Assembly (NCBI RefSeq): GCF_902652985.1
Contig: NC_047026.1
Location: 2,703,307-2,767,306 of the forward strand
Length of the DNA stretch: 64,000 bases
Source of the DNA: Pecten maximus
Taxonomy: Eukaryota
Direction: 5' to 3'
Shown here: positions 25,116 through 62,043 of the stretch, in pieces
How the letters are laid out: every line of letters starts with the position of its first letter
Position numbering within the stretch: position 1 is the stretch's first letter
Notes under the pieces: generated by a model
What the model was told of the DNA's origin: nothing
Seen by the model: only the letters and a program-made list of their open reading frames with translations
Databases searched by the model: none
Position numbers and translations under genes: made by a program

Positions 25116-25230
25116 TTAAACATGACATACCCTATTGAAGACTCTTGCTCTGAGACGATTCAGGGAGTAATCTTCGTCTCGTTTCTTTACATACTTCATG
25201 GCCTGCACTTCAGGGAGTTTCTTGTACAAC
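25116..25230 (-). CDS. Giant gene terminal coding exon ((R)LYKKLPEVQAMKYVKKRDEDYSLNRLRARVFNRVCHV*)
   Basis: Acceptor ttctctcag|. The stop TAA is at 25116-25118, matching ORF 25116..25316. LPEV and NRLRA.VF are conserved ALMS-motif positions. Confidence 0.65.
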
Positions 25231-25566
25231 CTGAGAGAAAAGATTTTGCATAAATTTACACCAAAATCATTAATGATTACTTCAGATAATTCAACCCAAT
25301 GAAATAAATGTTCCAATTGTATATTTTATTTTGTTTTGCTGACGATAGAATTCCTAGAAACTTGGGTCAGTAAAGATGGAAAACGTTGCCTTTACAAGTA
25401 CAGAGTGTATTTTTATTCTTTTTTTTTTTTTATAAATATTTTACAATTAAGAACTTGCTTGATTAATTTATATACATTAAATGTCTATTCATGTTACAAC
25501 TTGCCACAATATTTATGCTTGAATTATTAAAATTTAATGAAATAGAAGAAAATCTTTTAAACCAAC

Positions 25567-25630
25567 CTCTTGGTTATTTCTTTCATTTCCTTCTTGGACA
25601 TGGATCGTCTTTTTGGCTTGTGTAGATTTT
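25567..25630 (-). CDS. Giant gene exon ((E)NLHKPKRRSMSKKEMKEITK)
   Basis: Acceptor atttccag| and donor ag|gttggt. The phase is consistent. NLHKPKRRSMSKKEM parallels ALMS1 NLFKPKERCISEKEM. Confidence 0.55.
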
Positions 25631-25872
25631 CTGGAAATGATACAAATGTAAATCTAAAGTTATCAGAATGTCAAAAATAAATAATTTTTCAAAGATGGTG
25701 ATAAATTACTAGCGCCTATATGTGTCCAACAACAGTCTTTATATTAGATCTAGTGATTCGTTCGCTAGTAAAATATGATTCTTGACTACAAAACTGATTG
25801 CATTCATATTGACTATAAATGCCCTGGCCAGGCAGTTCAATGCTTAAGTATTGGGTTGTTGGCTTCACTTAC

Positions 25873-26050
25873 CACTATAAGGATGTGCGTCGGGGTTCGA
25901 CTCTTTCTTGTTGCCTTGGTTGTCAAACAGTTCCTTTCGCTCTTGTTCCAAGTAATGCTGCAGTTGGCGCTCGTGTGCTGCCAACAGGACTCTCTTCTGG
26001 CGCTCACCAACCCGAGATATCGTGTTTGGTTTGAAAGTCTTAAAGGCCTC
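25873..26050 (-). CDS. Giant gene exon carrying the start of the ALMS-like motif (EAFKTFKPNTISRVGERQKRVLLAAHERQLQHYLEQERKELFDNQGNKKESNPDAHPYS)
   Basis: Acceptor tttctttacag| and donor g|gtaagt. SLQEAF..KP..I.R..ER resembles the start of the ALMS-motif consensus. Confidence 0.65.
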
Positions 26051-26213
26051 CTGTAAAGAAATGGTATTCATGCGCTTATAAATACCATCTAAGAAATGTG
26101 TTTCTGACTCTCCAGTTCTAGAATTTTTAGCTAAACTTTTAATAATTTTCTATTTAAATGTATAATTTATATTTACAATTTATAATATTATAATTAACAA
26201 GTATTTCACTAAC

Positions 26214-26494
26214 CTGCAAGGACATTTTATTCAAAGGCTTTGGATCATAATTTTCTTCGTCAGAGCTGTTGGCATCCACATGTCCGTCGTCTTTCCGATG
26301 ACCTTTGGGGTCAAGGTCAAACTTTGTGTCCCGTGATTTATTGAGAATGTCACTACCGACGACAGCCTTCCAGTCTGCTGGGTGCATAGCTTTCGGTTGC
26401 CATGGTTTCTGTTTCACAGCATGTGCTTGCTGCTCCTTAAGAGGCTGTCTCCAAGGTCGGGATTCAGGCAAAGGAATATACCAGGACACGCCCC
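26214..26494 (-). CDS. Giant gene exon ((R)GVSWYIPLPESRPWRQPLKEQQAHAVKQKPWQPKAMHPADWKAVVGSDILNKSRDTKFDLDPKGHRKDDGHVDANSSDEENYDPKPLNKMSLQ)
   Basis: Acceptor tgtttcag| and donor cag|gttagt. Phase 1 in, phase 0 out. Confidence 0.65.
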
Positions 26495-26915
26495 CTGAAA
26501 CATTAAACACAACTAGTAAATAACAGTTATGATATTTTACAATATTTCTATAATATTCATGCATGTTGTTTTTCGACCATTTCTGGGAAGTTTTTTTTTC
26601 TTAATGCTTTACAATGATATCAAGACAAAAAAATGGTGTTTTCTGTTAAATTGTATATGTTTGAAAAAATGAAGTAGGTAATTTTTTTAGAAAAAATATC
26701 ATGACTTTTAACAGTGCTTCCTTGAAAATTGTCATAAGAAAATTTAGGGTAGATACAAATGTAGTGTAAGGAAACTGGAAACATATTATTTCTGTTTATC
26801 AGTTGTTCTGAGCTCAAACATAATTTTAACAACCTATTTTTAGATTAATTAGTTACAGGTTTGTTTAATGACTACATATCTATGCCTATTGCTAGGTTTG
26901 GCCTTAACAACTTAC

Positions 26916-28811
26916 TGTTAGGACTGTCCTGGAGTTTGGCTATACAGGTGTCTTCCGGAGTTTCCGGAGTAAACATCCGAGATTTAGGAGGTGGGACTGC
27001 CTTGGACATGTATCCATAATCAATGTCCGTCTTTGGAGATGGTGACCTTGGCCTCCTCCTAACCTCCTTTGACCTGTCGGGTGACATGCTTATCTCAAAT
27101 GATGTTGTCCTCTTGTTTTCCTGTGACTTTGACCTTGACCTTGACCTTAGAGGTGAACGTGATGATGCAGTACTTTTGTGAGCTGACCTTTGCCTAATAG
27201 GAGAGCGTGTGGTTGACCTGGTGGGTGAGGTCGAGATATTCTTATGCCGTCTCTCTGGTGACATCAGAGGAACTGGGAATGACCCCTCTGTCGTTGTGAG
27301 AGGGGATATAGGGGCTTGTCTGGATAGCCTCCGACACCATTGTGACCTTCCCAGATTTTTTGCTGCGTTGTCGAGGTGGACTGACATGTATGGGAGAAGG
27401 ATACATGGTTGACACAGACTTGTACTTTCGTGACGATGGTGACCTCGATTTCCTTGGCTTTTCAAACTCGTCCACATCTATACCATTATCCTCCATCTGT
27501 GCTAAAAACTCTTCCACGTTTTCTTTATTTCTGCGGTTGAGTTTCGGTTCCTGGTAGATATCGGCGGTACTCGTCTTCGTTTTCTTGTTTTTCTGTTTTC
27601 CTTTCTTTTCACTGCTGAACTTTTCTCCTCTTTGTTTGGCTGAGAACGGCCGATGAAAAATGCTGTCTTCATTTTGCGACTCTGAATCTTCTGTTTGTAC
27701 AGGGCCTTTCATTGGGACCCTCCCTCTTGTTGGGCCCCTACCCTTATCCAGAAATGCTACTTGTCGACTTTTATTTGGAGGCTGGAAGTGTACATCGGTG
27801 CTACTATCTTTTGATGAAGTATCGGCGACAGCAACATTGGAATCTCCCTGCGAGTTGAGAGTCGAATCTGTATCTAAAAGAGTGGACGAATCTGTCATGG
27901 ATATAGACGTTGTTGACGACACCAAGTCTAGTTCAACTCCAATAGCTTTGTCAGAAAGTCTGCCCTTCTGTTTAGCATTGAGCAACATTTCTAATTTCTT
28001 GAGTTTGTCCATTCTACGAATCTCCTTCTTTCTCTCTTTGTCAATTTTATCCCGTTGGTGTATGACCTTGTCGTGGAGTTTAGCCATGAGCGGATCGATG
28101 ACATGACGGCGCCGGTTACGTTTGGCCTTTAACATCAGATCAGATTCATTCAATGCACTCGGTGTTGTTGCTTCAAAGCTTGTGTCCTCTGGTATAGAGT
28201 AAAGTGTGTCTGCACTCTCTCCAAGCTTCTGGGCTCGAGCTGGTTTTGCTTCCTTGTTTCGGTTATTATTCTCCTTATTTTTCTTTTCTTTTTCTGCACG
28301 CTTCTTCTTTTCCTGATGAGCGAGGATCTCGGCGTAACTGCCATTGCTCTCGTCATCTCCACTCAACCTCTTCCTATACTCGGCTTCACGTCTCAATCGC
28401 TCGGCCTCTTTTCGTTGCCTTGCTGATTTTTCCACTTCCTGTTTCTGAGTTGTCTGCCCTTCATCTGCCTCTTCATTCAATGTGTTAAGCTCTTTCATCA
28501 ACCGGTTCTCCTTAGCACGTTCATACGTAACATCGTCCATGTACTTCTGGACAACATGCTTTGTGGGGTTCTTAATTAAGCTCGTAAGTGTATCCATCCG
28601 CGGGGTGTTCATACTGCTCTCGCTGGCATTGCTGGGATCCACATCCTTAAACCTCTGCCACATGTCGTTGATGTTTGGATGGACTGACTCACGATATTCC
28701 TTCTCAAGACTCTCACGAAGGATGACAACGCGCTTGCTGGGAGGCCTCTTGTCGAACTCTTCATCATATTCACTCTCATCGTCCACCAAGGGAACAAATT
28801 TGTGTTGAGAC
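26916..28811 (-). CDS. Giant gene large exon ((R)SQHKFVPLVDDESEYDEEF... coiled-coil K/E/R-rich segment ...SP/RS-rich tail ...LQDSPN)
   Basis: Acceptor atctgtag| and donor a|gtaagt. ORFs 27242..28789 and 26872..27477 overlap by 235 nt in frames offset by 1, a second frame break. The length is 1896 nt, so the boundary phases require a net shift of 1 nt. Confidence 0.6.
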
Positions 28812-29088
28812 CTACAGATGAAAGAAAGATTTCAGTTGTATACAATTTTTTTTTGTCTTCCATACCAAGTCCCTTGAATTACATACTTTTTTCAAAATTC
28901 TCCCAAAATGACCTTTGACCTGTAACCTTTAAACAATGATCAACTGACCCCTGATCTGTACACTTATTCATCTGTTAGTTGACCCCTGACCTGACCTCAC
29001 TGAATTGTGACCTTTGAAGTTTTAATTGACCCCTGTTTTGTGACCCCCAAACAACTATTAGCTGACCTTCGACCCTTTATGCACTTAC

Positions 29089-29189
29089 CTGGCTTTCATC
29101 TCCAGGTCCCTGATCAGTTTGTCCCGTTTCTCCTTCAGCAGTTTTTCTTTCTCCTCATTTATAGCATCCTCAAAGTCAGAATCAGGCAG
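29089..29189 (-). CDS. Giant gene exon (LPDSDFEDAINEEKEKLLKEKRDKLIRDLEMKA)
   Basis: Acceptor ctgacacag| and donor ag|gtaagt. Phase 0 in, phase 2 out. Confidence 0.65.
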
Positions 29190-29894
29190 CTGTGTCAGAC
29201 AATGAACAAGCATGTTATATCATGTGTTAATCTTAGTAAGCAATACTTATAGCAAAGAAAATATGTCACACTGATGTGATGTCATAGATAATTTATGATG
29301 TCATAATAAAAACATGGAAATCACACAATTGTCCATAGGGGAAAATATACCATCCAAGTCGAAAATGGCCTATCTTATGTAGAAATTGATTTGAGTTCTA
29401 ATTTACATTACGCATAAATATGAGTCAAGTGATCAACAGAATCTTACACTTGTGGATATACAAACTGGACATGAGGAATTGAAATTATACATGTTTACAA
29501 ATAATATTAAAGTGATTAAACATTTAACAACAAAGTAGAAAACTTTGGAGATAGAAAACACTTCAAATCTGAAATAAAAATTTAAGCCATGTTAATCTGG
29601 GCCGTTTTCGTTTTTGCGGTCCGAACGGTTAATCAAGTTGGACCGGTGTTGTTCGTTTATGAAATTAAGACGGACCTGGTGATTTTATATTGTTTTTAGA
29701 CGAGCCTTGACAAAGACTTCCAAGGCCTGTATTAACATTTGCAGGTCTGTCAAGATATATGTCTGAAATATTACATTTAGAAAACTGACAAACCGGTTTG
29801 TCCGCATAAACGAACAGGCCCATGCAGTGTCTGGGTTAAGGGGAGATAATCACACTACCCAGCACACAGAGGTAATATATATGTGTATAATCAC

Positions 29895-31335
29895 CTGCTC
29901 AAGCTCCCTAAACTGCCCATCTCCCTCTGGGTCCGTGTAAGCAGATCCTCGAGGATTATCGCGGTCCGAGTTCCTACCCATCACCTCAGCGAAATCTGCC
30001 CCTGGCTCCAAGGGTCGGGCTATCAGCCCTGGGCCTGGTTCAAGAGGTCTGTCTATCCGCGGTTCAAGTGGGTGGTCAGCACCTGGATTGTAGCCTCGGT
30101 CCACTGGTTGTCCAGTTTTATCACAGTAGGTGGCCGTGACCTCAACTCTGCCATCAGCCCTGGTTTTGATTTGCCCACGATGGACTCATGAGTCGCTGAC
30201 GCTCAGCCTGGGTGACATACTCTACTGGTGCATTATCTCCCCTTGATCTGTACCGACCATCAATACCACCGTTATCTGATGTGCCCCGTCCAGTCTCTCG
30301 TCTATTTTGATAGATCTCCCTATCAGAGTGGTAGTTATCTCTTGCAGACGGGCGCTGATAGATGTCTCTTGCATCTAGTTCTCTGTAATGTTCTCCTGGT
30401 TCAAGTGACCTTGACCTCAATCTAGGATTGTAATCAATTTCTTTGTCCAAAGGATCAAATTTCTCTAGATCTTTATAGTCTTTTCCTCTCTCCAAAGATC
30501 TCTGTTGAAGCCTCTCTTCCATGTACTTTGCCATATGATCCTGGGCTTGACCTGGCTTGGGGCTTCCCCTGCCGCCAGCAATCGCTGGGGAATCCATTGT
30601 CGTATGATGAGAGAAAATTGGAGATGGTTGGCATGACAACTCCATTAACCTTGTGTTGTGAACTGGTGAGGAATTCCTGTGACTCTCTGGACTGAGGGCA
30701 ATAAGATCTGTCTCTGACTTTGACCTTGACCTTGTGGCCCCGACAGGGTCCTGTTGGTAGTAGTTCCTTCCTTCAGAGTACCTGTCCAAAGGGTAGACAG
30801 ACAGGTCACCCTCCCGGCCTGGGTGTGGGGTGAAGATGTCGCCAGGGTCCGACCTTGTAGTGACAGACAGGGGATCGTCTTTACTTTCTGTACCACTGTT
30901 AATTCTCTCCTTGGGTCGCGTCTCTGTGGAGGTCAGTCCTGAATAATCTGATCCAATACTTCTATATCTATGACTGCTGGTTCCTGTGTCAGCTGCGAAT
31001 CGGTTGCCAAGGAAGTCATCCCCAGGCACCAGACGGCGTTCATCCCTGTGCTGACTTTCTGATGCCAGTCTGGAGGGATTGTAACTCCCTTGATATTCTC
31101 GGTCTTTCAAGGGCAGATCACTCCGTGAACGAAGGTCCGCAGAAGTTGGTTTTGAGCTCCTGTATGGCACAACCTCATCCTGGTCACTTTCCTGTCTCCC
31201 GGGACGACCTGAGAGGAGTTCAAGGCCACTGTCTGGACGTTGTTCTGTTGAAACAGTGTTATCTCCCCTTGAATTGCCGGAATGCATGGATCTCCTGTCT
31301 AAGCCACTGTCTGTCCCAGACTTATCCCGGTCATC
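29895..31335 (-). CDS. Giant gene large exon (DDRDKSGTDSGLDRRSMHSGNSRGDNTV...YVTQAERQRLMSPSW... then (D/H)RPLEPG repeats ...FRELEQ)
   Basis: Acceptor tgttgacag| and donor cag|gtgatt. ORFs 30154..31287 and 29850..30104 sit in frames offset by +1 around 30104-30156, so the exon holds a frame break: either a 1-bp indel or a very short intron (for example a 55-nt candidate, 30146..30200). Confidence 0.6.
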
Positions 31336-31792: not shown

Positions 31793-32000
31793 CCCCGCGG
31801 TGGTTAAGGTGTCCCGACATTTTATCACTAGCCCTCCACCACTGAGTTGCGAGTTCGAAACCCAAGTGGGACAGTTGCCTGGTACTGACAGTAGGCCGGT
31901 GGTTTTTCTCCAGGTACCCCAGCTTTCCTCCACCTCCAAAACCTGACACGTCCTTAAATGACCCTGGCTGTTAATAGGACGTTAACTGAAAACAAACAAA
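31793..32000 (+). mobile_element. tRNA-derived SINE, copy 3, 5'-truncated, in an intron of the giant minus-strand gene and antisense to it
   Basis: Same family as the other two copies. Confidence 0.65.
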
Positions 32001-32049: not shown

Positions 32050-32189
32050 CACCAAGGATTTCTCCTCAATAGTGGAGAGTCCATCAGATGAAGGTTTGTG
32101 ATTACTGTAGATACCGCCAGATTTAGGGCCGTCCAGTCTTGATCCCAGGCAATGGGAAGGGAATGATGGCCCAATCGCGTCATCGGAAC
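32050..32189 (-). CDS. Giant gene exon ((G)SDDAIGPSFPSHCLGSRLDGPKSGGIYSNHKPSSDGLSTIEEKSLV)
   Basis: Donor gtg|gtaagt. Acceptor tgttgtag| (phase 1). An alternative acceptor ttcttcag| at 32219 would add LIVDVAHVV. Confidence 0.55.
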
Positions 32190-33840: not shown

Positions 33841-34665
33841 CTCGGGGGTCCTTCCACGAGACGCTGTGTCGTCCACCGACATAGTCACTATGGAAACCAT
33901 AATGACGTTCCTTGTAATCACCATGACGACCTAGACCATTCTGATAATCTTTGCGATAATCTCTCATGTAATCAGAAGAAAAGTTAGTTTTTCCGTGATC
34001 ACGCTGGTATTCCTTCCTCTCGGAGTTATAAACATGTGATTTACGATGATCGTTTTCCGAATGAATATCACCGACAACATCGAGTTTGCTATTATTTTGT
34101 TTCTCGTAATCACGTTTGTGTTTATCACTGTCGTATTTGCGATAATCAGAATAAGTTCCAGATTTGTAATCCAATTTCTGTGTATAATCGTTAAATTTGT
34201 TAGGGGTGTCGACCGACGACGTATAACCGTTATATTTGGTTTGTGTGTCGACTGACGAGGTAGAACCGTTATATTTATTCTGGGTATTGGCCGATGGTGT
34301 ATAACCATTATATTTGGTTTTGGTGTCGACCGATGGCGTACAACCGTTATATTTGTTATGGGTGTCGACCGATGGCGTATAACCGTTATATTTGGTTTTG
34401 GTGTTGACCGATGGTGTATAACCGTTATAATTGGTTTTGGTATCGGCCGACAGCGTAGAACCATTATATTTGTTCTGAGTATCGCCCGATGGTGTATAAC
34501 CGTCATATTTGCTTTTGTAATCAGTGGGATAGCTCTTGTAAGTATCGGCGGGAGTGGTCTGGTCGTCACGGAGATATTTGAAAGTATCGTCACTATGGTC
34601 CCAGTTTCTGTATGCGTCGTCTGTAGTACAATAAAAATATTCTCCTGTACTGGCCACAGAAATAA
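33841..34665 (-). CDS. Giant gene exon: a Tyr-rich region with about 9 tandem 12-aa repeats (KYNGYTPSVDTxT), followed by a DY/RK-rich stretch
   Basis: ORF 33734..34657. Donor cga g|gtatcc at 33835-33840 with phase 1. The overlapping ORF 33964..34593 in the other frame hits a stop before the donor. The 5' boundary is uncertain; a weak acceptor attgtag| at 34666 keeps phase with the upstream exon. Confidence 0.5.
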
Positions 34666-36348: not shown

Positions 36349-37140
36349 TATCTTAAATAAAAAGAAGTTAATTACTTGAACCTCTAAGAAAACTTGGACT
36401 CTGCATGTCACATGCCTCCAGAGATTTTCAGTATAAGATAATATTATAACTATAGTATAGAATATGTACCTGTGCTTGTATGAATATATTATGTATGATA
36501 CTTAAATACATAAAGTGAAGTTGATTTGTTCAATTTAAAATTTCTTATCACTCAGATTGGAACATAGGAAGGATTAGCAGAGAAAGAAGGAGTGATAGAC
36601 AGAGGGAGATTCACCTGAGTGTGAGCTTTCCATGGTAGAATTTACAGCTGCAAAGAATCGGCAATGGAAGATATATTACCAGTTTATACAACATGCGAGT
36701 CAGAGGATGAAGTGTCCAGTAAATAGTGTGTAAAGATGATATACCATGCACTTCTTTATCCATCAACTACATCATGAACATTCCTAAGAAGTAATGGCTA
36801 AACAAATGACTCATGCATGCTGTACCAAAAAGAAACAGGACAGAAATTTGTGTTTTTGCAAAGCAGAACCACACAGCAAAATATTTCTATATCAAACCCC
36901 TTATCACTCACAAGATCACTATTACCTATGGGCCTCTATAACAAATCCCTGAGGACCTGTGAGTTCACTATTGGCATATAACGAACTACTGTGGATCTTT
37001 AAGTTCAATATGGATCTGTAAAAAATCCCTGAAGATCTGTGGGTTCACTTTTAGCCTGTAACAAATCCCTGAGGACTTATGAGTTCACTATGGGCCCATA
37101 ACAAATTACTGAGGATATGCAAGTTCACTATGGGTCTAAG
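36349..37140 (+). repeat. Segmental repeat unit U, copy 1 (about 790 bp), immediately 3' of MITE copy 3. It ends in a 40-bp tandem sub-array
   Basis: More than 95% identical to 38432-39230. Confidence 0.8.
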
Positions 37141-38210: not shown

Positions 38211-38354
38211 CAGGGGGAAATTACGCTAATTACAAACCGGAAGATCACTTTTACCCACAAAAAATATATACAACAACCAAAACCCACACCCCCCCCCCCC
38301 CCCCCCCCCCCCCACCCCCACCCCCCCCCCCACCCCCCCCCCCCCCCCCACCAC

Positions 38355-38412
<58 letters not shown>

Positions 38413-38431: not shown

Positions 38432-39500
38432 TATCTTAAATAAAAAGAAGTTAATTACTTGAACCTCTAAGAAAACTTGGACTCTGCATGTCACATGCCT
38501 CCAGAGATTTGCAGTATAAGATAATATTACAACTATAGTATAGAATATGTACTTGTGCTTGTATGAATATATTATGTATGATACTTAAATACATAAAGTG
38601 AAGTTGATTTGTTCATTTAAAATTTCTTATCACTCAGATTTGAACATAGGAAGGATTAGCAGAGAAGGAAGGAGTGATAGACAGAGGGAGATTCACCTGA
38701 GTGTGAGCTTTCCATGGTAGAATTTACAGCTGCAAAGAATCGGCAATGGAAGATATATTACCAGTTTATACAACATGCAAGTCAGAGGATGAAGTGTCCA
38801 GTTAATAGTGTGTACAGATCATATTCCATGCACTTCTTTATCCTTCAACTACATCATAAATACTCCTAAGAAGTAATGGCTAAGCAAATGACTCATGCAT
38901 GCTGTACCAAAAAGAAACAGGACAGAAATTTGTGTTTTTGCAAAGCAGAACCACACAGCAAAATATTTCTATATCAAACCCCTTATCACCCATATAGATC
39001 ACTATTACCTATGGGCCTCTATAACAAATCCCTGAGGACCTGTGAGTTCACTATTGGCCTGTAACGAACTTCTGAGGACCTGTGAGTTCACTTTTGGCCT
39101 ATAATCAATCCCTGAGGATCTGTGAGTTCACTATGGGCCTATAACAAACTACTGAGAGTCTGTGAGTTCACTATTGGCCTGTAATGAACTTCTGAGGATC
39201 TGTGAGTTCACTATGGGCCTGTAATAAATCCTTGAGAGTCTGCGAGTTCACTATGGGCCTGTAACAAACTCCTGCAGATCTGTAAGTTCACTATGGGCCT
39301 ATTACAAACTTCTGTGGATCTGTGAGTTCACTTTTGGCCTATAATCAATCCATGAGGATCTGTGAGTTCACTATGGGTTTGAAACAAATCTCTAAGAACC
39401 TGTAAGTTCACTATGGTCCTAAATTGAACTTTTTTGGACCCCTAAGTTCAATTAAAGCCTATAACGAGCCCATGAGGATCTACAAGTTCACCATTAATGA
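38432..39500 (+). repeat. Segmental repeat unit U, copy 2, plus an expanded 40-bp tandem array (ctgaggatctgtgagttcactatgggcctataacaaact, about 12 copies, 38995-39500)
   Basis: Direct comparison with 36349-37140. Confidence 0.8.
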
Positions 39501-39993: not shown

Positions 39994-40088
39994 CTGTGTG
40001 TGTACTTTCTACTGTGGCGATGCTGTCCATCAGTGACCCAGAGTCGTCATTGTCCTCGGTATAGTACAGGTCACGGCTCCCGTAGGGT
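39994..40088 (-). CDS. Giant gene exon ((R)PYGSRDLYYTEDNDDSGSLMDSIATVESTHT)
   Basis: Acceptor ctctgacag| and donor g|gtatgt, in the frame of ORF 39887..40108. Its phase is consistent. Confidence 0.55.
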
Positions 40089-40439
40089 CTGTCAGAGCAA
40101 ATCATCACATATTACTTACCAATTCTTATTCAATCAAAAACTGCTGACCATATTTATCTTGAACATAAGCCCAGGCCCAGCAATAAGCTGACTGAAATCT
40201 ACTTTGCTGTTTAGTAAAATATTAAGAGTGGAATATTGCAATACCAAATATCCCAATTTCAATATTCAATATAAACCAAACTACTGCCACATACCGAACC
40301 CCCAACCCCCAACAAGATTATGTGATATTCTAGTGTACTATTATATATCAGTAAAATGTATTGTCCCATAAAAAGTACCCACCCAAACCCCAAACCCCAA
40401 ACCCCCAACCCCGATTTTGAGTAAGAGGTTATGTGCTTG

Positions 40440-40660
40440 CCCCAACGTAATTTGAGACAGTTATTTGTATTGCCCCATAGAATTTGAGACAGTTATCTGT
40501 ATTGCCCCATAGAATTTGAGACAGTTATTTGTATTGCCCCATAGAATTTGAGACAGTTATTTGTATTGCCCCATAGAATTTGAGACAGTTATTTGTATTG
40601 CCCCATAGAATTTGAGACAGTTATCTGTATTGCCCCATAGAATTTGAGACAGTTATTTGT
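40440..40660. repeat. 32-bp minisatellite (tgccccatagaatttgagacagttatttgtat), about 7 copies
   Basis: The period is visible. Confidence 0.9.
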
Positions 40661-40949
40661 AAAGTATCCAGATAAAGATAACCTAGGGATTAAAATTTAC
40701 TACCATGACATCTTGTATAAGACATCCCTGTTATGATGTAATGTTGTGTACAGGTGTTTAACACTACATGCATAGATAACTCCTTAATTGAGTTTTAACA
40801 GCAAGAAACATTCAGAGAAAATGACCGATTACATACATCAGGTGGTAAATCATATCCCAATCCATCATATCAAACATAAGGTCAAGGTCACGGATGGTCA
40901 AGCCTTGGTCAGATTGTACCCAACGATGTAGACTGCACATCATATCACT

Positions 40950-41380
40950 ATGACAACGATCCAATCAAACATATCCTATCACTTCTGTTAACGATCCAAT
41001 CAAACGTGTCCTTTCACAACCGTCAACGATCCAATCAAACGTTTCCTATCACGACTGTCAACGATCCAATCAAACGATCACGACTGACAACGATCCAATC
41101 AAACGTTTCCTATCGCTTCAGTTAACGATCCAATCAAGCGTATCCTTTCACAACCGTCAACGATCCAAACAAATGTTTCCTATCACGACTGTCAACGATC
41201 CAATCAAAAGATCACGACTGACAACGATCCAATCAAACGTTTCCTATCAAGACTGTCAACGATCCAATCACACGTATCATATATCACGACTGTCAATGAT
41301 CCAATCACACGTATCCTGTCGTGACTGTCAATGATCCAATCACACGTATCCTATATCACGACTGTTTATGATACAGTGTG
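40950..41380. repeat. Variable-unit minisatellite of 37-45 bp (caacgatccaatcaaacgtttcctatcacgactgt), about 10 copies
   Basis: Visible directly. Confidence 0.85.
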
Positions 41381-42264: not shown

Positions 42265-42358
42265 CTATATGGGCGGAGCCTTGAGCCCTCCCGGCGACGT
42301 GAACTGTTGTCAGAGTCGTTGGGTGAAATCACACCTCCACTGCTGGATGGACTGCCCT
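42265..42358 (-). CDS. Giant gene exon ((E)GSPSSSGGVISPNDSDNSSRRREGSRLRPY)
   Basis: Acceptor ctatag| and donor ag|gtaaga. It has a single open frame with consistent phase. Confidence 0.55.
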
Positions 42359-43892: not shown

Positions 43893-44420
43893 TTGGTGCC
43901 CACCATTGAATGATCTTCATTAGCTCTATGTCAGACTGACCTTCTAACTACGTTTCCCTACTTTCTTCTTTTCCTCTTAATAATCTGATAACAAGAACAA
44001 GTGGAACCTATTTGTGAAGTTTGAGGAATATCCCTCCAGTACTTTTCAAGAAATAGCGATGAACAAATTTCAATTCTCAAAATTCAAGATGGTCGCCTCA
44101 GCCATTTTGCTTTCCTGATCAAATATTAAAATCAAATTGGCATAAATAGGGACCAAGGGGTCTTAAACATCAAATTTGAGGAGTATCCCTCCAGTTCTTT
44201 TCAGGAAATAGTGACTACAAACTTCAATTCTCAAAATTCAAGATGGTCGCCTCAGCCATTTTGCTTTCCTGATCAAATATTAAAATCAAATTGGCATAAA
44301 TAGGGACCAAGGGGTCTTAAACATGAAATTTGAGGAGTATCCCTTCCAGTTCAGATGGCTGTCTGTCAGCCATTTTGTTTTTCTGTTCAAAAATCCAAAT
44401 TGAATTGGCACAAATAAGGA
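43893..44420 (-). mobile_element. Degenerate copy of the satellite-bearing element: terminal hairpin end plus about 2.5 diverged satellite units
   Basis: It carries the atcccaaagggatcttggtgcccaccattgaatgatc terminus and units resembling aatagcgatgaacaaatttcaattctcaaaattcaagatggtcgcctcagccattttg. Confidence 0.55.
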
Positions 44421-45755
44421 GCAAGGGGAACCTACAGGTGAAAATTAAAATGATCCAGTTAATTTTTAATATAGATTTCCCACCTGTAGAGACATGTCCA
44501 CTATCAGTGTTAAAATTTCCTATACCACAATCCAAAGGAACAAAATTGTGCCATGGATTACAGCAAAAACACACAAATTAAATTTCTCAAATACATCCAT
44601 GATTAGTCAAAAAAACATATCAATAGGCTTCTTCTTAAATGTTGTTTAATTATGTGAATGTTGGTTTTTTTTCCTGTAAAAAGAGTCAGTGCTCAAAAAT
44701 CTCAATCAAAAGCACATGCACATGTCACACAAGGTTACATGTAAGTTACATATGTACGTGTTAGGAAAATCAATGTTGTGTTATATAATTAGCGCACACT
44801 GTCTACCTCTGCGATGACGACGGTATCTTTTCTTTCTACGAGCTGAAAATATTGTAAGCATTGGCATGCACAATATGTAATATGTATATACATGTATATT
44901 CAGATACGAGCTGAAAATATTGCAAGCATTGGCATGCACAATATATAATTTGTATATATATATGTATATTCAGATACAACATAATATTGTTACACACTAT
45001 CAAATTAAAACTAACTACAGTCTCCGATTCACTTACCTGGTATGAGAAAGCTCATCATGATGGCGTACTTATTTACATCACACAATTTTTACAGTACTGT
45101 AGATGTTTATAATTAGAACATTAGTCTTAGGCATGAATATTTTCTCCAAGCCGAGAAAAATAGATGAAAAGAAGAAAATATCAACGATGATGTTAAATGA
45201 GAAAAGTTGCTTGTCTTTTTAACATCAGCAGCATTTTTATTTTTAGCGAGAAAAAATTCAGAACAACAAGCATAATGGGCATTGCTGAAAAATATATGTC
45301 CCCTTACCGGCCCCTGCTAGAAATAGCAACAGCGACCTTGACCCCAAATCTCTGAAACTCGAATTTGATTGAGAAATTATTGTCCTTTGTCATTGTGTGA
45401 AGTTTTATCAAAATCCCTCAAAGAATGAAGCCGCTAGAGCGCTGACAAACTTTGGCGTTACACAAGTACATACAGGACGGACAGAGAGCTCGAGGAAACC
45501 TATAGTTCCCAGGCACATCACCAGCCGAGGATCTCTTGGACTTATAATGTACTATATTTTTCATGCAAAGGTTGAAATTCAAGGACTTTTTATAACTGTG
45601 TGAACCATGTGTTAGGTGATAATTATAGCCTGATGATCTACAAATTCTACGAACAGAGAGACGGAGAAAGGAAGAACTAAATATAGAATAATTTCAAACA
45701 GCAAAACAGCTAAGCAGTAGACATGTGACATGCTATAATTTGTGTGTGTACTGAC

Positions 45756-45853
45756 CATGCTGTGGACTGTTGCCTCCGTAAGTTTCCTGACGGTCACTAC
45801 TTCCAGATCGCGACAGACGGGCGCTCTTACTACTGGAAGGACGACCATCTTCT
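45756..45853 (-). CDS. Giant gene exon ((G)EDGRPSSSKSARLSRSGSSDRQETYGGNSPQH)
   Basis: Acceptor ttttcag| and donor g|gtcagt. Its phase is consistent with the flanking exons. Confidence 0.55.
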
Positions 45854-46268: not shown

Positions 46269-46370
46269 CCGTGCGGTGATGAAGAAAATCTGCGATCAGT
46301 TGGCGAAGTTGAGTTGTTGTCATGACCTAACGGTGCTGCCTCCTCCGACCTACTTCTGATATGTCGTTCC
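46269..46370 (-). CDS. Giant gene exon ((R)ERHIRSRSEEAAPLGHDNNSTSPTDRRFSSSPH)
   Basis: Acceptor atttag| and donor gg|gtaaga. It has a single open frame, and its phase fits both neighbours. Confidence 0.55.
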
Positions 46371-47439: not shown

Positions 47440-48660
47440 AGGTATGAATAAATAGACTGAGATTTCTGATTATACCAATAAATAAATAAAATAATTACAC
47501 CGAGATATCAATACACTCTGATTACACCAATAAATAAATAAAATAATTACACCGAGATATCAATAAACTATGATTACACCAATAAATAAATAAAATAATT
47601 ACACCAAGATATCAATACACTCTGATTACACCAATAAATAGATAAAATAATTACACCGAGATATCAATACACTCTGATTACACCAATAAATAAATAAAAT
47701 AATTACACCAAGATATCAATACACTCTGATTACACCAATAAATAGATAAAATAATTACACCGAGATATCAATACACTCTGATTACACCAATAAATAGATA
47801 AAATAATTACACCGAGATATCAATACACTCTGATTACACCAATAAATAAAATAATTACACCGAGATATCAATACACTCTGATTACACCAATAAATAGATA
47901 AAATAATAACACCCAGATATCAATACACTCTGATTACACCAATAAATAAATAAAATAATTACACCGAGATATCAATACACTCTGATTACACCAATAAATA
48001 GATAAAATAATTACACCAAGATATCAATACACTCTGATTACACCAATAAATAGATAAAATAATTACACCAAGATATCAATACACTCTGATTACACCAATA
48101 AATAAATAAAATAATTACACCAAGATATCAATACACTCTGATTACACCAATAAATAGATAAAATAATTACACCGAGATATCAATACACTCTGATTACACC
48201 AATAAATAGATAAAATAATTACACCGAGATATCAATACACTCTGATTACACCAATAAATAGATAAAATAATTACACCGAGATATCAATACACTCTGATTA
48301 CACCAATAAATAGATAAAATAATTACACCAAGATATCAATACACTCTGATTACACCAATAAATAGATAAAATAATTACACCGAGATATCAATACACTCTG
48401 ATTACACCAAGAAATAGATAAAATAATTTCACCGAGATATCAATACACTCTGATTACACCAATAAATAGATAAAATAATTACACCGAGATATCAATACAC
48501 TCTGATTACACCAATAAATAAATAAAATAATTACACCGAGATATCAATACACTGAGATTTCTAATTACACTGATACCGATAAATAAAAAAAATAAATACA
48601 CCAAGAAATAAATAAACTGAGATTTATGATTACACCGATAAATAAATAAAATAAATACAC
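47440..48660. repeat. 52-bp minisatellite (48-bp variants also occur; cgagatatcaatacactctgattacaccaataaataaataaaataattacac), about 23 copies
   Basis: The period is visible (cgagatatca at 47501 and 47553). Confidence 0.9.
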
Positions 48661-49864: not shown

Positions 49865-50455
49865 TGTTCTATCCCTTCAGTACCTTCTGTAAAATAGCGA
49901 TAACAAACTTCAATTGTCAAAATACAATATGGCTGCCTGTCGGCCATTTTGTTTTCCGATTAGTCTCAAAATTCAATATCCATACCTAGGCACCAAGGGG
50001 AACCTACATATAAAATTTGAGAAAGATCCCTTCAGCACTTTCTGAGAAATAGCAATAACAAACTTCAATTGTCCAAATCCAATATGGCTGCCTGTCGGCC
50101 ATATTGTTTTCCGATTGGTCTCAAAATGCAATATGCATAACTAATGTTAGCACCAAGAGGAACCTACATATGAAATTTGAGAAAGACCAATTCAGTGCTT
50201 TCTGAGAAATAGCAATAACAAACTTCAATTGTCAAAACCTAAGATGGCTGCCTGTCGGCCATATTGTTTTCCGATTGGTCTCAAAATGCAATATGCATAA
50301 CTAGAAACCAAGAGAAACCTATATATGAAATTTTAGAAGATCCCTTCAGTACTTTGAGAAATAGCGATAACAAGAATTGTTTACGGATGGAGGGACGGAC
50401 GGACCACGGACGCAGGGCGATTTGAATAGCCGATGGTGGGTTAAAAACACCTGGG
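49865..50455 (-). mobile_element. Satellite-bearing element, short copy: about 3.5 units of the 155-bp satellite, then a GGAC-repeat and cagggcgatttgaatagcc terminus
   Basis: Reverse complement of the 16453-18500 satellite. Its end is shared with 52995-53110. Confidence 0.75.
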
Positions 50456-51756: not shown

Positions 51757-53115
51757 AAGAGATCCCAGAGGGATCTTGGCGCCCACCATTGAATGATCTT
51801 TATAGGTTCCATGTCAGATTGATCTTTTCCCTACTTTTCCCTTCCTCTAAGTCTTACTTATCTGTGTAAATTCAGAAACAGCCCTCTAGTACTATTCAAA
51901 CAAGGGGAACCTATATATAGAATTTAAGATTTAGCTATAATGGCTGTCTGTCGGCCATGTTGTTTTCGTATTGGTCCCAGTATGCAAAACTAGGCACTGA
52001 GGGGAACCTACATATGAAATTTGAAAAAGATCCCTTCAGTACTTTCACAGAAATAGCGATAACAAACTTCAATTGTCAAAATCCAAGATGGCTGCCTGTC
52101 AGCCATGTTGTTTTCTGATTAGTCTCAAAATGCAATATGCATAACTAGGCACTGAGGGGAACCTGCATATGAAATTTCAGAAAGATCCCTTCATTACTTT
52201 CACAGAAATAGCGATAACAAACTTTAATTGTCAGAATCCAAGATGGCTGCCTGTCGGCCATGTTGTTTTCTAATTAGTCTCAAAATGCAATATGCATAAC
52301 CAGGAACAAAGAGGAACCTGCATATGAAATTTGAGAAAGATTCCTTCAGTACTTTCACAGAAATAGCGATAACAAACTTCAATTGTCAAAATCCAAGATG
52401 GCTGCCTGTCGGCCATTTTGTTTTCCGATTGGTCCCAAAATGCAATATGCATAACTAGGCACCAAAGGGAACCTATATATGAAATTTGAGAAAGATCCCT
52501 TCAGTATTTCCTCAGAAATAGCGATAACAAACTCAAATTGTCAAAATCCAAGATGGCTGCCTGTCGGCCATGTTGTTTTCCCGATTGGTCCCAAAATGCA
52601 ATATGCATAACAAGGCACCAAAGGGAACCTACATATGAAATTTGAGAAAGGTCCCTTCAGTATTTCCTCAGAAATAGCGATAACAAACTCAAATTGTCAA
52701 AATCCAAGATGGCTGCCTGTCGGCCATGTTGTTTTCTGATCGGTCCCAAAATGCAATATGCATATCTAGGCACCAAGGGGAACCTACATATGAAATTTGA
52801 GAAAGATCTCTTCAATACTTTCTCAGAAATAGAGATAACAAACTTCAATTGTCAAAATCCAAGATGGCTGCCTGTCGGCCATGTTGTTTTCCGATCAGTC
52901 CCAAAATGCAATATGCACAACTAGGCACCAAGGGGAACCTACATATGAAATTTGAGAAAGATCCCATCAGTACTTTCTCAGAAATAGCGATAACAAGAAT
53001 TGTTTACGGACGGAGGGACGGACGGACGGACGGACGGACGGACGGAGGGACGGACGGACGACGGACCACGGACGCAGGGCGATTTGAATAGCCCACCATC
53101 TGATGATGGTGGGCT
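51757..53115 (-). mobile_element. Satellite-bearing element, apparently complete copy
   Basis: It starts with (A)|TCCCAGAGGGATCTTGGCGCCCACCATTGAATGATC, runs through about 7 satellite units (51900-52990), then a (GGAC)n tract and cagggcgatttgaatagc, and ends in an 11-bp-stem hairpin CCCACCATCtgatGATGGTGGGcTAA. Confidence 0.75.
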
Positions 53116-55866: not shown

Positions 55867-55980
55867 CTGTCGGGACTAATCCTGAAGTCAGGCGAGAGGT
55901 CACGAGGGTCACTGTAGCGTCGTTGTTGGTCCCGCTGCTGGACCGGGCTGTTGTCCAATTCATTAAGAAAAAAACGTTCA
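55867..55980 (-). CDS. Giant gene exon ((N)ERFFLNELDNSPVQQRDQQRRYSDPRDLSPDFRISPD)
   Basis: Acceptor tgttttgcag| and donor ag|gtacag. Phase 2 in and phase 2 out, linking the 59062 donor to the 46370 exon. It is the only open frame of ORF 55812..56063. Confidence 0.55.
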
Positions 55981-56157
55981 CTGCAAAACAGGATTGGTGG
56001 TGATAGGTAGGAGTGAGGGGTACACTCGGGGCACACAGGGCAGGCAAATCTCGAAAACTCCATGCTGCTTCGAATCTTAACAAGTTATGATATGAACTAA
56101 AAATGGTCAACCTTTCTACCCTGTTGAGCTAGTTTTAGGGGTGCATTACAATCAATA

Positions 56158-56265
56158 ATAATTCTTTTTTTTGATAATAAATTTCTTAATAATTTAATAA
56201 ATTTCTTAATAATTTAATAAATTTCTTAATAATTTCATAAATTTCTTAATAATTTCATAAATTTC
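56158..56265. repeat. Tandem repeat of about 22 bp (aataatttaataaatttcttaa), about 5 copies
   Basis: Visible directly. Confidence 0.85.
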
Positions 56266-59061: not shown

Positions 59062-62043
59062 TTGGCAAGCTGTGGTGTTACGGTATCTTTGAGTTCCAGT
59101 TCCCTCGAGGGTCGCGCTGGTGATGGTTCCAATTCACGGTAAACCTCTTCATCTTTGCTCTCTGTATCGCCCCGACTTGCACCCTGGTCTTGCCATGCCT
59201 CTCTGGTGACGCCTGGAGTTACCTGCCCTTGGTTGTCACGGTACACAGGGTAGCAGTCGATGACCTGACGGTATGGTGTCCGTAGGTTTATACTATGGTC
59301 AAACGTACGGTCAGTAGTTTTCTGGATCTGAGACGATAGGTACTTTTCCGCATTCCCAAGGGCATTGAAGGGCGCATGCTTGCCGCCCTTCAGGAAGGAC
59401 AACTCCGATGCAGCTGTTTTGTCAGGATGCATACTTCCGTTCAAAGAACTCATCTGCGACCACTCCAGTTGTTTCTTTATGTCCCTGTCACGAACTATAA
59501 AACTGCCGTTTGGGGATTCGTAGCTGTCGTAGCTAGAGTCCATCTTTGGCCGGTTAGCAATCCTCTCCATCATCACTCGTTCCTGTTGCATAGCTTCCTC
59601 CAGTATACCAAACACTTGTTTCTGGGGTGGTTCTTTAGTGAGAATGGTGAAAACACGACTCGCCAAGCCAGAGGTGTCCAACGCCTCTTCATCTCCTTTC
59701 TTAGACTGATACTTTCTAATAATCTCCTCCACATCAGGTGCAAGGTTTCTTGGCCGACCATCCGCATCCAGCTCGGGTTCCGAATCCAGTTGGTCACCTA
59801 CAATATCCACTTTCCTGCGTCCGTGATCGGGCGACGGCCTCTCATCGTCTGTGTTCGGCCTGGATTCCCCAAGTGCAGTCAGACCTAGTGTATCAGTTTC
59901 GGTTTCTGTGTCGTTTTTCATAGTCCCAAGGAACACCCCTGCCCCACTGACATTTATTCCAAAGTCAGCTGCATGGTCCCAGAGGAGTTTACGGTTTCGT
60001 GCACTCTCAGGGATTTGAAGAGAAACTTTCACCACTTCTGTCCATATCTGGGCCTCTAGACCTCGGAGCCTGACTGCTGTACTCGGTCTCCCCTACCTGA
60101 TGGTGGAGGCTATTCTGAATGTCCTGAAGGTCCCTCTGTAACATTGAGTAGTCTATTTGTACAGGATTACCATTAAATGGTTTATCGCTATGTCGTGTTT
60201 GTTCCGGAGGTGGGTACTGCATTTTTTCGACGTATGCTGTTTTTGCTAAAACATTCTGGACTCTTTGACCAAGAGAATCTCCTGAATCCGTACTGCGATC
60301 TGAATTAAGACGAGCACGCGTCTCCTCAAGAAGCCTCTCAGTCTCTCGTTCTTGTCGATAGTAGCGCTGCAAAGACTCCAATTCAGCAGCACTTTCATTA
60401 CTGAGGTCCCTTTCCTCTGTCACAGACTTGAGGTCAAGCTTCAGACTGCCAGCACTAGCAGAATCTCCCTTCACCAGCAGTTTAGCCACTTCTTCACCGA
60501 GGGAAGAGGTCATGCTCTGTTCAGATTTTGACAAATTTTCCGTATTTGACCCTAAGGAACCAAGACTTCGAGACTGACTCTCCAGGTTTTCCTTCACTTC
60601 CTCGATCTTTCTCTCGGCCTGGACTACATCGTAGGGAGGTGGAGGTGGTCTAGAGTCTATGGGACATGGTAATGGCCTATCCATGGACCCTAGTGGTCTA
60701 GACTCCAGTAATGGCCTATCCATGGTCCCTAGTGGTCTAGAATCTAGTAACGGTCTGTCTTTGTTGTGCTGGTCGCCGTCACCAAGACCTAACGACTCTC
60801 TACTGTACAATTGTTTATGAAGAGAAGCCCCTAATGAACTGGCATCATCAAGAAGTTTTGCGACACGATGTGACATGTCACTGCGGGACTGCGTATCTGT
60901 CCCTTGAGTTGTAGTGGCAGTATCTGTAGTTGCTAGGGGTGCAGTCATTGTCTGACGATGACCGTTTTCTGACGTCACACTCTGAAAATTTTCTGATTTC
61001 TGTGTTTCCGAGTCGGCGCGAGGCAGCCCTATCAAACGTTCTCTGTCAAGTACTGGAACATACACAACATCTTTCCGTTTTTGTCCCGTTTCTGAGTCTG
61101 CTGCTGATGAAGACTTCTTCAGAGCATCATTCAAACCTGACTCACCAGGTTTGCTACCTACTAACCTAGAATCAGATACAGAACTCGTCTGAGATTTTGA
61201 CTCTCGACCTTGAGACCTGTGATTATTATCTGAACCAGAATTTCTGTCATTCTCCTCCAATGATCGCCTCAAAACTAGAGTAGGCGCATCAGACTTTCTT
61301 TGTCCATTTTCTGATTTGAATTCTGGTAGGGCCTCTCCCGAATCTCTCCTGGTTAACCTTTGACTTTCATAACCTTGACCCCCTGGCACCTGCATGCCTC
61401 CATCACGACTTTGGTCAGAAAATATTGCATAAAACTGCTGGGTAGAAGGTTGGGAAGATCCGCTGGTTTTGTCAGAGTCTTCACCTGATCCAGTGTCAGA
61501 GCCTGACTTAGCACTCGGAGCACTGTCAGTGTTGGATAAAGCACTAGCCATAGTATTAACAGTCTGTGTGCTGTGGTACCCAGAGTCCTTGCCTCTCTGT
61601 GTATTTACAGAGGCCATTGTGTCTAACATTGGGTTTCTTGCAGGACCTTCACCTTCAAGTGACCTTGGGGTTGGTTCAGGGTTATAGTCTGATTCATAAG
61701 GGTTCCATTCGACATCCGACATCCCCGTCGCGGATTCCGGGTAATTAGCATAAACAGCCCCCCTGGGATCACCAGTCGACCCCTTATGGTCTCCATCCGA
61801 GTTGCTGTCACTGTCCCCAGAACCCACCACACACCTCATGGGGGAGAAATTCCCTGAGATAAAGTCCTTAGATACTTCTGTTATAGCGGTAGACAAGGCC
61901 TCATCATTAATACTTCCACCATCATGAGCCGAGTCATATCCTGACTTGTCATCCAAAGGGTACTGTGACAAACTAAGGTTACCTAAAACAGAAAAAGACA
62001 ACACCGTTACAATAAGTACCCGGTACCATGATTTCATATACAT
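59062..62043 (-). CDS. Giant ALMS-motif gene, exon 1. ATG at 62043 to donor GTAAGT at 59056-59061; the N-terminal MYMKSWYRVLIVTVLSFSVLG stretch resembles a signal peptide
   Basis: ATG with an in-frame TAG two codons upstream. ORF track 60007..62043 (678 aa) and 59058..60035 (325 aa) lie in adjacent frames. A 49-nt GT-AG intron (60048..60096, CAG|GTAGGG...CCCAG|ATA) joins them exactly and yields the phase-2 exit required by the next exon. The product is Ser/Asp/Arg-rich with DRPLL(D/E)SRPLG repeats. Confidence 0.6.

Follow-up and report, generated by a model that had tools for sequence, protein, structure and literature searches.

Proteins with an ALMS motif occur in many ciliated eukaryotes. 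ALMS1, the centrosome and basal-body protein affected in Alström syndrome, carries this motif at its extreme C-terminus. The C-terminal 994 residues of ALMS1 contribute to centrosome targeting (PMC2965680), and similarity to ALMS1 outside the motif has been reported as detectable in chordates only (PMC2965680, PMC6327082). An additional 47-aa ALMS repeat domain (PF18727) is specific to mammals (PMC6327082), so that it defines mammalian ALMS1 and not the whole orthologue group. The CEP295/KIAA1731 family (Drosophila Ana1) is a family of giant centriole proteins that also has a C-terminal ALMS motif, while C10orf90/FATS is a protein of ~700-800 aa with an ALMS motif of its own. Among invertebrate ALMS-motif proteins, Drosophila Alms1a and Alms1b are regarded as ALMS1 orthologues. 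They are found at the proximal centriole and in the pericentriolar material and are required for centriole duplication (PMC12000580), and they offer the best guide to what an invertebrate ALMS1 does.

We analyzed a window of 64,000 nucleotides from the king scallop Pecten maximus, in which a minus-strand region had been flagged as a giant multi-exon gene ending in an ALMS-like motif. This region is the RefSeq gene LOC117338796, whose 2664-aa protein is titled "LOW QUALITY PROTEIN: uncharacterized protein". The gene and its ALMS motif were known beforehand, since both are present in RefSeq and UniProt-type resources. Judging from sequence comparison, LOC117338796 is very probably the Pecten maximus orthologue of ALMS1. 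The scallop protein and vertebrate ALMS1 both have the ALMS motif at the extreme C-terminus and, upstream of it and in the same order, the conserved blocks described below as B (weakly), CD, E, and F. Both are also huge, largely low-complexity proteins that are partly encoded by giant exons. With 2.6-2.9 kaa, the scallop protein resembles the ALMS1 of frog, lizard, and shark in length more than that of mammals (~4.2 kaa). It differs in lacking the 47-aa repeat, with no PF18727 match in either the RefSeq Pecten protein or its Tyr-rich exon (bat ALMS1 has 34 repeats), and in having a Tyr-rich cassette exon, specific to pectinids, that contains a 13-aa repeat of its own.

At least 19 coding exons of the gene lie within the window, all on the minus strand, and in a frame-corrected spliced model every junction is GT-AG and in phase, which bears out the multi-exon minus-strand gene proposed in the preliminary description. 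Many exon matches of the RefSeq Pecten protein to the window are at 100% identity by tblastn, and the spliced model equals that protein except at two of three frame corrections. A word-indexed protein search returned a single Pecten protein. The earlier estimate of a product of ~2800 aa was close, with 2879 aa encoded in the window when every cassette exon is included and another 45 aa upstream, and the composition (S 12.5%, D 8.8%, R 8.8%, E 7.3%, K 6.9%, Y 3.7%) agrees with its characterization as Ser/Arg/Asp/Glu/Tyr-rich. Most of this product is presumably disordered and of low complexity; conservation is seen in a handful of short blocks, in the long K/E/R-rich helices, and in the C-terminal helical ALMS motif. 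The neighbouring gene is CDC23, and scanning the window for Rfam families and tRNAs gave no match.

Both ends of the gene differ from those first proposed. The gene enters the window from beyond position 64000, where its first 45 codons and the first coding exon (MDGAASGHHNQ) lie, and the second coding exon of the RefSeq model (E2, 124 nt, 63222-63345) was recovered by tblastn with an AG acceptor and a GT donor. E2 encodes TGSTNDSGRDD...SETETSD(G), which is conserved in Mizuhopecten and Ylistrum, and in the orthologues and RefSeq the protein reads ...SETETSD^GNLSLSQ across the intron between E2 and the giant exon E3 (carets mark exon boundaries). E3 (2921 nt, 59062-61982) has the acceptor ...ctgttttag^GT and the donor GCTAA^GTAAGT and contains conserved blocks A and B. 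The ATG at 62043 that had been taken as the start is therefore intronic, since 62043-61983 is intron and the exon begins at 61982. The TAA at 25116 is likewise an intron read-through beyond the donor AGG^GTATGT that follows 25131, and the gene ends in a last coding exon (E19, 24390-24434) that is conserved in orthologues and encodes KVQRTVLQKSDKQS followed by a TAG at 24392-24390. E19 lies outside the interval of 25116-62043 originally assigned to the gene.

The starts proposed for five short exons (55980, 46370, 45853, 42358, and 40088) are exactly the acceptor-defined starts of RefSeq-supported exons. The accompanying claim of a single open frame in each is correct for 46370, 42358, and 40088 and wrong for 55980 and 45853, which have two stop-free frames each. 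These exons are E4c (114 nt, phase 2-2, 55867-55980), which is in the RefSeq Pecten model; E5 (102 nt, 46269-46370), with its single open frame; E6 (98 nt, 45756-45853), with its two; E8 (94 nt, 42265-42358), where conserved block CD starts; and E9 (95 nt, 39994-40088), which encodes PYGSRDLYYTEDNDDSGSLMDSIATVESTHT(G) and is the first half of block CD, the most conserved block outside the motif. Between them, the Pecten RefSeq model places a mini-exon, E7c (36 nt, 44807-44842), encoding ARRKKRYRRHRR. Downstream of E9 are a second mini-exon, E10a (33 nt, 38697-38729), encoding (A)VNSTMESSHS(G), and the Tyr/Asp/Lys-rich exon E10Y (780 nt, phase 1-1, 33841-34620). The second half of block CD is encoded by E11 (140 nt, 32050-32189) as (G)SDDAIGPSFPSHCLGSR...GIY.

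Further downstream, the large exon E12 (1441 nt, 29895-31335) is followed by E13 (101 nt, 29089-29189), encoding LPDSDFEDAINEEKEKLLKEKRDKLIRDLEMKA, and by the large exon E14 (1896 nt, 26916-28811), which opens with block E, continues with long K/E/R-rich helices at ~28570-27911, and closes with an S/R/P-rich tail. A K/E/R-rich coiled coil had been suggested at 28.0-28.5 kb, and long helices are indeed predicted there with block pLDDT up to 96; two AlphaFold models of parts of the scallop protein are extended helices with pTM 0.24-0.28. E15 (281 nt, 26214-26494) contains block F (GVSWYIPLPESRPWRQPLKEQQ), and its final codons open the ALMS motif. The motif then continues through E16 (178 nt, 25873-26050), which encodes its helix 1, E17 (64 nt, 25567-25630), encoding ENLHKPKRRSMSKKEMKEITK(R), and E18 (100 nt, 25131-25230), encoding ...LYKKLPEVQAMKYVKKRDEDYSLNRLRARVFNR, into E19, so that it spans five exons at 24408-26231. 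The C-terminal peptides originally quoted for the gene are encoded at 26050-25131. Searching the spliced C-terminus against Pfam PF15309 confirmed the motif at 101.1 bits (E = 8.5e-29; cutoff 27), and the RefSeq Pecten protein scored 99.7 bits over residues 2531-2659 of 2664, covering profile positions 2-132 of 133. The predicted fold of the motif is helix, conserved loop, helix, helix (block pLDDT 75-92).

The preliminary description had left ALMS1, CEP295, and C10orf90 as candidate families, and five collinear blocks outside the motif, absent from CEP295 and C10orf90, narrow this choice to ALMS1. We built HMMs from invertebrate non-motif segments and scored them on 13 vertebrate ALMS1, 8 CEP295, C10orf90, and reversed decoys. 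A human CEP295 sequence served only as bait for fetching CEP295 proteins named as such by their source, and no conclusion rests on the bait. Block CD scored 21.6-79 bits and block E 6.5-24.9 bits on 13/13 vertebrate ALMS1, and block F scored 24-37 bits on 12/13 in that run, while the same three blocks reached at most 3.4 bits on CEP295 (n=8), 1.8 on C10orf90, and 3.4 on reversed decoys. For blocks A and B the support in vertebrates is weak, and some of their scores are no higher than those of decoys. Along the sampled vertebrate ALMS1 proteins the block matches occur in the same order as in invertebrates, and the signatures shared with vertebrates are TTxESTHxGSxDAxxPxFP, LNxLWxxYQ...RLDxLxxLLxNPxxH, and GxSWFxPV..KPWRxPLxE. 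Full-length collinear orthologues are found in bivalves and gastropods, and collinear blocks in annelids, hemichordates, and amphioxus. In an exhaustive HMMER search of 1.84 billion representative proteins, the named large vertebrate matches that were looked up were all ALMS1, and several large fish and shark matches had no informative name. When the C-terminal alignment was used in a word-indexed search, it retrieved short fragments only and no vertebrate proteins. Since the non-motif blocks match ALMS1 while CEP295 and C10orf90 score at decoy level, we consider the scallop gene an ALMS1 orthologue.

An assignment to CEP295/KIAA1731 (fly Ana1) would account for the similar size (~2600 aa) and for the C-terminal ALMS motif common to both, but the motif of CEP295 is divergent, and CEP295 has PF28375 and a Ddc8-like N-terminus, both lacking in the scallop protein, and none of the ALMS1 blocks. 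Our mollusc C-terminal profile scored 76-93 bits on 13/13 ALMS1 and only 17-24 bits (max 24.4) on 7 of the 8 CEP295, with a negative score on the eighth, and the Pfam ALMS_motif score of the Pecten protein, 99.7 bits, compares with 28 for human CEP295. In the precomputed Pfam annotation from which we read its presence or absence, the CEP295-specific PF28375 is listed for CEP295 proteins and absent from 11/11 mollusc proteins, which have PF15309 only. With the non-motif blocks at decoy level as well, a CEP295 identity is effectively refuted, and we give it next to no probability. C10orf90/FATS has a motif of the same subtype as ALMS1, very similar to the mollusc profile (95 bits), but is far shorter than the scallop protein, and the motif is all that the two have in common. 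A different objection is that an unrelated disordered protein may have acquired an ALMS motif, in which case the ALMS1 label would be unjustified. The published restriction of non-motif similarity to chordates would fit this, but CD, E, and F recur in vertebrate ALMS1 without a change of order, carry clear sequence signatures, and score far above decoys, which makes such an acquisition highly improbable.

It could also be argued that the interval holds 2 or more genes, one N-terminal and Ser-rich and one C-terminal with the ALMS motif, which have been artificially fused. Long introns separate the exons from 59 kb to 32 kb, and several of these exons are tiny or optional. Against this, the junctions are all in phase, and at least 12 mollusc species have been annotated independently with a single protein in which the blocks keep the same order. 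A split into 62043-40000 and 34665-25116, named in the preliminary description as what would undo the single gene, finds no counterpart in these species, as both halves are joined, in unchanged order, in single proteins of 2100-3000 aa annotated in Mizuhopecten, Ylistrum, Tegillarca, Mytilus, Ostrea, Saccostrea, Crassostrea, Sinanodonta, Littorina, Haliotis, Candidula, and Elysia. The order of B, CD, E, F, and motif is furthermore kept within one polypeptide in annelids, hemichordates, amphioxus, and vertebrate ALMS1. An artificial fusion is thus very unlikely, and we treat the locus as a single ALMS1 gene.

The raw sequence does not form the unbroken phase-consistent chain that had been proposed, as E3, E12, and E14 each change frame once within conserved coding sequence. 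Without frame correction the ORF stops at aa 699, and the chain is open after removal of 1 nt at each of three places. Site 1, AATCC[C]TGAGAGT (60010-60012), has one base extra relative to the orthologues, which read ...SFSSNPESARNRK. Site 2 (30153-30168) has one extra base in the stretch from ...SWAN to GRVEV, and its position is ambiguous: our model drops a G (~30160) of the GGG at 30160-30158, and RefSeq drops the A at 30154. Site 3, ATTCC[C]AGTT (27275-27277), also has one base extra, and here the orthologues and RefSeq both read ...DRGVIPVPLMSPERR. We considered mini-introns at the switches (91 nt, 60096-60006; 85/94 nt, 27337/27346-27253), which keep phase and are bounded by GT-AG, yet rejected them as spurious because the orthologues encode conserved residues through those stretches.

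The three switches are probably single-base insertion errors of the assembly and not biological. The P. maximus genome was assembled with wtdbg2 from PacBio Sequel (CLR) reads (PMC7191990), and it was polished with three rounds of Illumina data limited to homozygous edits, in a genome with a heterozygosity of 1.71% (PMC7191990). The stop at aa 699, in an assembly that has been through three rounds of polishing, might be taken as a sign that the switches are real and reflect a pseudogene copy or allele or an unusual decoding event. However, the new frame after each switch is open and conserved for hundreds of codons, the orthologues read without interruption through all three sites, and in E14 they are 85-88% identical over 220 aa. 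All three changes are +1 insertions, which are typical of long-read consensus error, two of them lie in CCC runs and the third in a stretch with GGG and AAAA runs, and polishing was restricted to homozygous edits at this level of heterozygosity. RefSeq also makes corrections at the same three places. Real frame switches are accordingly a decidedly unlikely explanation, and we retain that of assembly error. The RefSeq protein can nevertheless be improved, since its correction at site 1 is misplaced, ~20 codons too early, and the Tyr-rich cassette exon is missing.

By homology with vertebrate ALMS1 and Drosophila Alms1a/b, the scallop protein would most likely be located at the proximal end of centrioles and basal bodies, where it might act as a scaffold for centriole-associated factors. 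Docking would then fall to the conserved C-terminal blocks, with the long variable regions serving as spacers. In mammalian ALMS1, CD, E, and F are found within roughly the last 500-900 residues, and by their distance from the C-terminus we infer that they would fall inside the human 3176-4169 centrosome-targeting region (PMC2965680). These blocks are short candidate functional elements in a disease protein whose mechanism is poorly understood. As far as conserved sequence can indicate, the collinear blocks extend true ALMS1 orthologues to Spiralia, which goes beyond the "chordates only" statement of the literature; evidence for orthology outside the motif now reaches molluscs, annelids, and hemichordates, where published ALMS1 reviews had given chordates only. 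The gene can be named ALMS1 instead of "uncharacterized protein". None of these gains, in naming, gene model, or blocks, is surprising to a specialist.

Four exons look like cassettes when the NCBI gene models and one Mizuhopecten isoform, on which this status is based, are compared: E4c (55980-55867), E7c (44842-44807), E10a (38729-38697), and the Tyr-rich E10Y (34620-33841). E4c, which is in the Pecten RefSeq model, is absent from the Mizuhopecten X2 and Ylistrum models, and E7c is in the Pecten RefSeq model only. E10Y, whose start had been put at 34665 when it is in fact at 34620, is omitted by the RefSeq Pecten model, and Mizuhopecten isoform X2 is the only model with a homologue of it (76% and 53% identity to P0002). 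Within E10Y, a 39-nt tandem repeat is present in 8.6 copies at 34182-34517. The preliminary description had considered giant exons with internal tandem repeats typical of ALMS1; a tandem repeat is present, but the likeness is one of analogy only, as the 13-aa Tyr-rich scallop repeat bears no relation to the 47-aa ALMS repeat of mammals.

Outside the motif, the signature that most strongly marks ALMS1 from scallop to mammals is ...TT(M/V/I)ES(T/S)H(T/S)G^S(D/N)DA(I/V)xPxFP... in block CD, and in scallops an exon junction splits this TT..ESxH..DA signature. E10a and E10Y, both lineage-specific cassettes, insert exactly at this junction. If the cassettes are used, alternative splicing would switch a conserved ALMS1 interaction surface between an intact and an interrupted form, a speculative proposal that we regard as rather doubtful. 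The 33-nt mini-exon E10a re-encodes a variant of the first half of block CD, and it has a second identical copy at 36615-36647, with intact splice sites, inside a 2082-bp tandem duplication.

Joined into a draft, the large open stretches on the minus strand, between which the sequence is AT-rich and filled with repeats, matched 11 proteins, the best of them RefSeq P0001 (2664 aa; P. maximus gene LOC117338796), whose sole Pfam domain is PF15309. Many exons matched P0001 at 100% identity by tblastn, from 63345 down to 25131, so the window, of eukaryotic composition (GC 29-47%), comes from the P. maximus genome and the gene is the one already annotated. Since both the ALMS-motif gene and its domain are in public annotation, the novelty of finding them is minimal. 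The preliminary description had recognized this motif, and had named ALMS1, CEP295/KIAA1731 and C10orf90 as the families sharing it. Pfam ALMS_motif bears out the identification, with 101.1 bits on the C-terminus encoded in the window and 99.7 bits on P0001.

These families were compared first by the motif itself. An exhaustive HMMER search with a profile made from the C-terminal 225 aa of seven mollusc sequences matched 487 representative proteins at E <= 0.001, with the motif mostly at or near the C-terminus among the 150 matches listed. Among the 30 matches checked by name, the informatively named large vertebrate proteins were all ALMS1, one 760-aa match was C10orf90, and CEP295 did not occur. 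A mollusc C-terminal profile (E15-E19) scored 76-93 bits in 13 vertebrate ALMS1 proteins, at most 24.4 bits in eight CEP295 proteins and 95 bits in C10orf90. Additional HMMs, made from invertebrate segments that exclude the motif, were run against the same ALMS1 proteins, reversed decoys, C10orf90 and the same CEP295 proteins, which had been retrieved with a human CEP295 sequence as bait only and take their names from NCBI. Block CD (E8, E9 and E11; LRPYRPxGSxEVYY...TTxESTHxGSxDAxxPxFPxxxLGxR...GIY) scored 21.6-79 bits in the 13 ALMS1 proteins versus no more than 3.2 in CEP295 and -2.7 in C10orf90. For block E (start of E14; LNxLWxxFQ...RxDxLxxLxxNPxxH) the values were 6.5-24.9 bits, all negative and -0.7, respectively. 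Block F (E15; GxSWYxPx...KPWRxPLKE) gave 24-37 bits in ALMS1, matching 12 of the 13 in the run that included CEP295, versus at most 2.3 in CEP295 and 1.8 in C10orf90. The CEP295 maximum over all blocks, the weak A and B included, was 3.4 bits, as was that of the best reversed decoy, and every ALMS1 keeps an identical block order. CEP295 also carries PF28375 in the precomputed Pfam column, which lists it for none of the mollusc proteins. The 47-aa ALMS repeat of mammalian ALMS1 had no match in the scallop protein; this repeat is described as mammal-specific (PMC6327082). Judged by these sequence scores inside and outside the motif, and by the contrast with CEP295 and C10orf90, the scallop gene is an ALMS1 orthologue, which supports the earlier interpretation and narrows it to ALMS1. 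The comparison gives evidence that ALMS1 orthology outside the motif reaches Spiralia, with a better gene name and a corrected protein model as further by-products.

For the gene model, every junction was placed from the sequence and the spliced translation was then compared with P0001. On the minus strand the coding exons are E2 (63345-63222), the giant E3 (61982-59062), cassette E4c (55980-55867), E5 (46370-46269), E6 (45853-45756), cassette E7c (44842-44807), E8 (42358-42265), E9 (40088-39994), cassette E10a (38729-38697), the Tyr-rich cassette E10Y (34620-33841), E11 (32189-32050), E12 (31335-29895), E13 (29189-29089), E14 (28811-26916), E15 (26494-26214), E16 (26050-25873), E17 (25630-25567), E18 (25230-25131) and E19 (24434-24390), which closes with the stop TAG. 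Every junction is AG...GT and keeps phase, and the window encodes 2879 aa when every cassette exon is included. Codons 1-45 of P0001 are absent, so the gene extends past the right end of the window.

The preliminary description was largely right about this structure but wrong at both ends, and did not mention three frame breaks. Its five short-exon starts (55980, 46370, 45853, 42358 and 40088) are exact; the single open frame ascribed to each holds for three, while in the exons at 55980 and 45853 two frames are free of stops. The size and residue composition of the product agree, and the C-terminal peptides are encoded as it quoted them. The proposed start ATG at 62043 lies in an intron tail that runs to 61983 and translates as MYMKSWYRVLIVTVLSFSVL; orthologues and RefSeq instead splice in from exon 63345-63222 (...SETETSD|GNLSLSQ). 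Likewise, the proposed stop TAA at 25116 is reached by intron read-through (VCHV and then TAA) beyond a donor AGG|GTATGT after 25131, and the conserved C-terminal tail KVQRTVLQKSDKQS* is encoded at 24434-24390. A split into two genes had also been considered, but bivalve and gastropod annotations contain collinear full-length orthologues of 2100-3000 aa, and in proteins of annelids (Owenia, Capitella), hemichordates (Ptychodera, Saccoglossus) and amphioxus the conserved blocks follow one another in the same order. This speaks for a single gene.

The supposedly continuous open chain in fact halts at aa 699 in the raw ORF, with E3, E12 and E14 each switching frame once. Short GT-AG introns at the breaks (e.g., 60096-60006, which keeps phase) were rejected because the conserved residues are encoded throughout in Mizuhopecten and Ylistrum, whose proteins span all three sites (...SFSSNP|ESARNRK, SWAN...GRVEV and ...VIP|VPLMSPERR). 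One ORF runs through once a single base is deleted at each of 60012-60010 (CCC), the GGG near 30160 and 27277-27275 (CCC), and it departs from P0001 only at the first two of these sites. At the first, RefSeq switches frame near 60070, about 20 codons early, so that some 20 residues (LRGLEAQIWTEVVKVSLQIP; 60010-60092) are not in the frame read by the orthologues of Mizuhopecten and Ylistrum. Since wtdbg2 built the assembly from PacBio Sequel reads, with Illumina polishing limited to homozygous edits and a heterozygosity of 1.71% (PMC7191990), the simplest explanation is that the three breaks are putative assembly indels.

Two optional exons enter at the E9|E11 junction, which splits the core of block CD (ESTHTG|SDDA). 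E10a (33 nt) encodes VNSTMESSHSG, apparently a duplicated version of the conserved sequence at the end of E9 (ATVESTHTG). The mini-exon is present twice, identical and with intact AG/GT (36647-36615 and 38729-38697), because of a 2082-bp tandem duplication in the E9-E10Y intron (36291-36832/38374-38914; 96-98% identical); the RefSeq model uses one copy. For E10Y (780 nt), the only homologous sequence is part of isoform X2 in Mizuhopecten (P0002; 76% and 53% identity). An open frame of 260 codons, GT-AG borders of compatible phase and its conservation speak for E10Y being a real exon and a candidate for use in Pecten. The internal tandem repeats described earlier lie within it (39-nt unit, 8.6 copies), and the Pecten exon has extra 13-aa repeat units.

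The C-terminal ~1000 residues of ALMS1 contribute to centrosome targeting (PMC2965680), and centriole duplication requires fly Alms1a/b (PMC12000580). In mammalian ALMS1, blocks CD, E and F and the motif occupy about the last 900 residues and, by distance from the C-terminus, would fall inside the targeting region. AlphaFold2 predicted for the motif a long helix, a conserved loop NPDAHPYSENLHKPKRR and two more helices, with no compact fold (pTM 0.24), and the K/E/R-rich region noted earlier at 28.0-28.5 kb is likewise predicted as long helices (block pLDDT up to 96). Most likely, scallop ALMS1 would be a long, mostly disordered scaffold, with the conserved C-terminal module most likely docking it at the centriole.

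Exons of a CDC23/APC8 gene lie at 9726-13285 on the plus strand, convergent with the ALMS1 gene (Pfam ANAPC8 on ORF 9726-9971, E = 2.3e-9; TPR_1 on ORF 13031-13285, E = 2.1e-14). Across the whole window, an Rfam scan found no family at its gathering score and a tRNA scan of both strands found no gene. Short tandem repeats at 9120-9687, 19868-20242 and 21113-21376, probably in introns or intergenic DNA around CDC23, produce repetitive but spurious ORFs, for example (LQSYCPLCIT)n and (LPGMGLFKHYTIFC)n. An intronic homopolymer of 123 nt (38289-38411; C on the plus strand, 90% pure) could be an artefact of assembly or a poly(G/C) tract of unusual length. Tandem arrays with a 154-160-nt unit occur at three places in two introns (44020-44352, 49871-50373 and 51940-52996; 87-94% matches, up to 6.9 copies); two seem to have a unit in common, and they look like a satellite or MITE-type repeat of bivalves. 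Intronic minisatellites are found at 47465-48553 (52 nt x 21 copies, 96% matches), 40437-40661 (32 nt x 7) and 40939-41365 (35 nt x 12.5), and at 39009-39481 and 36926-37138, where each copy of the duplicated segment in the intron contains a 40-nt unit.
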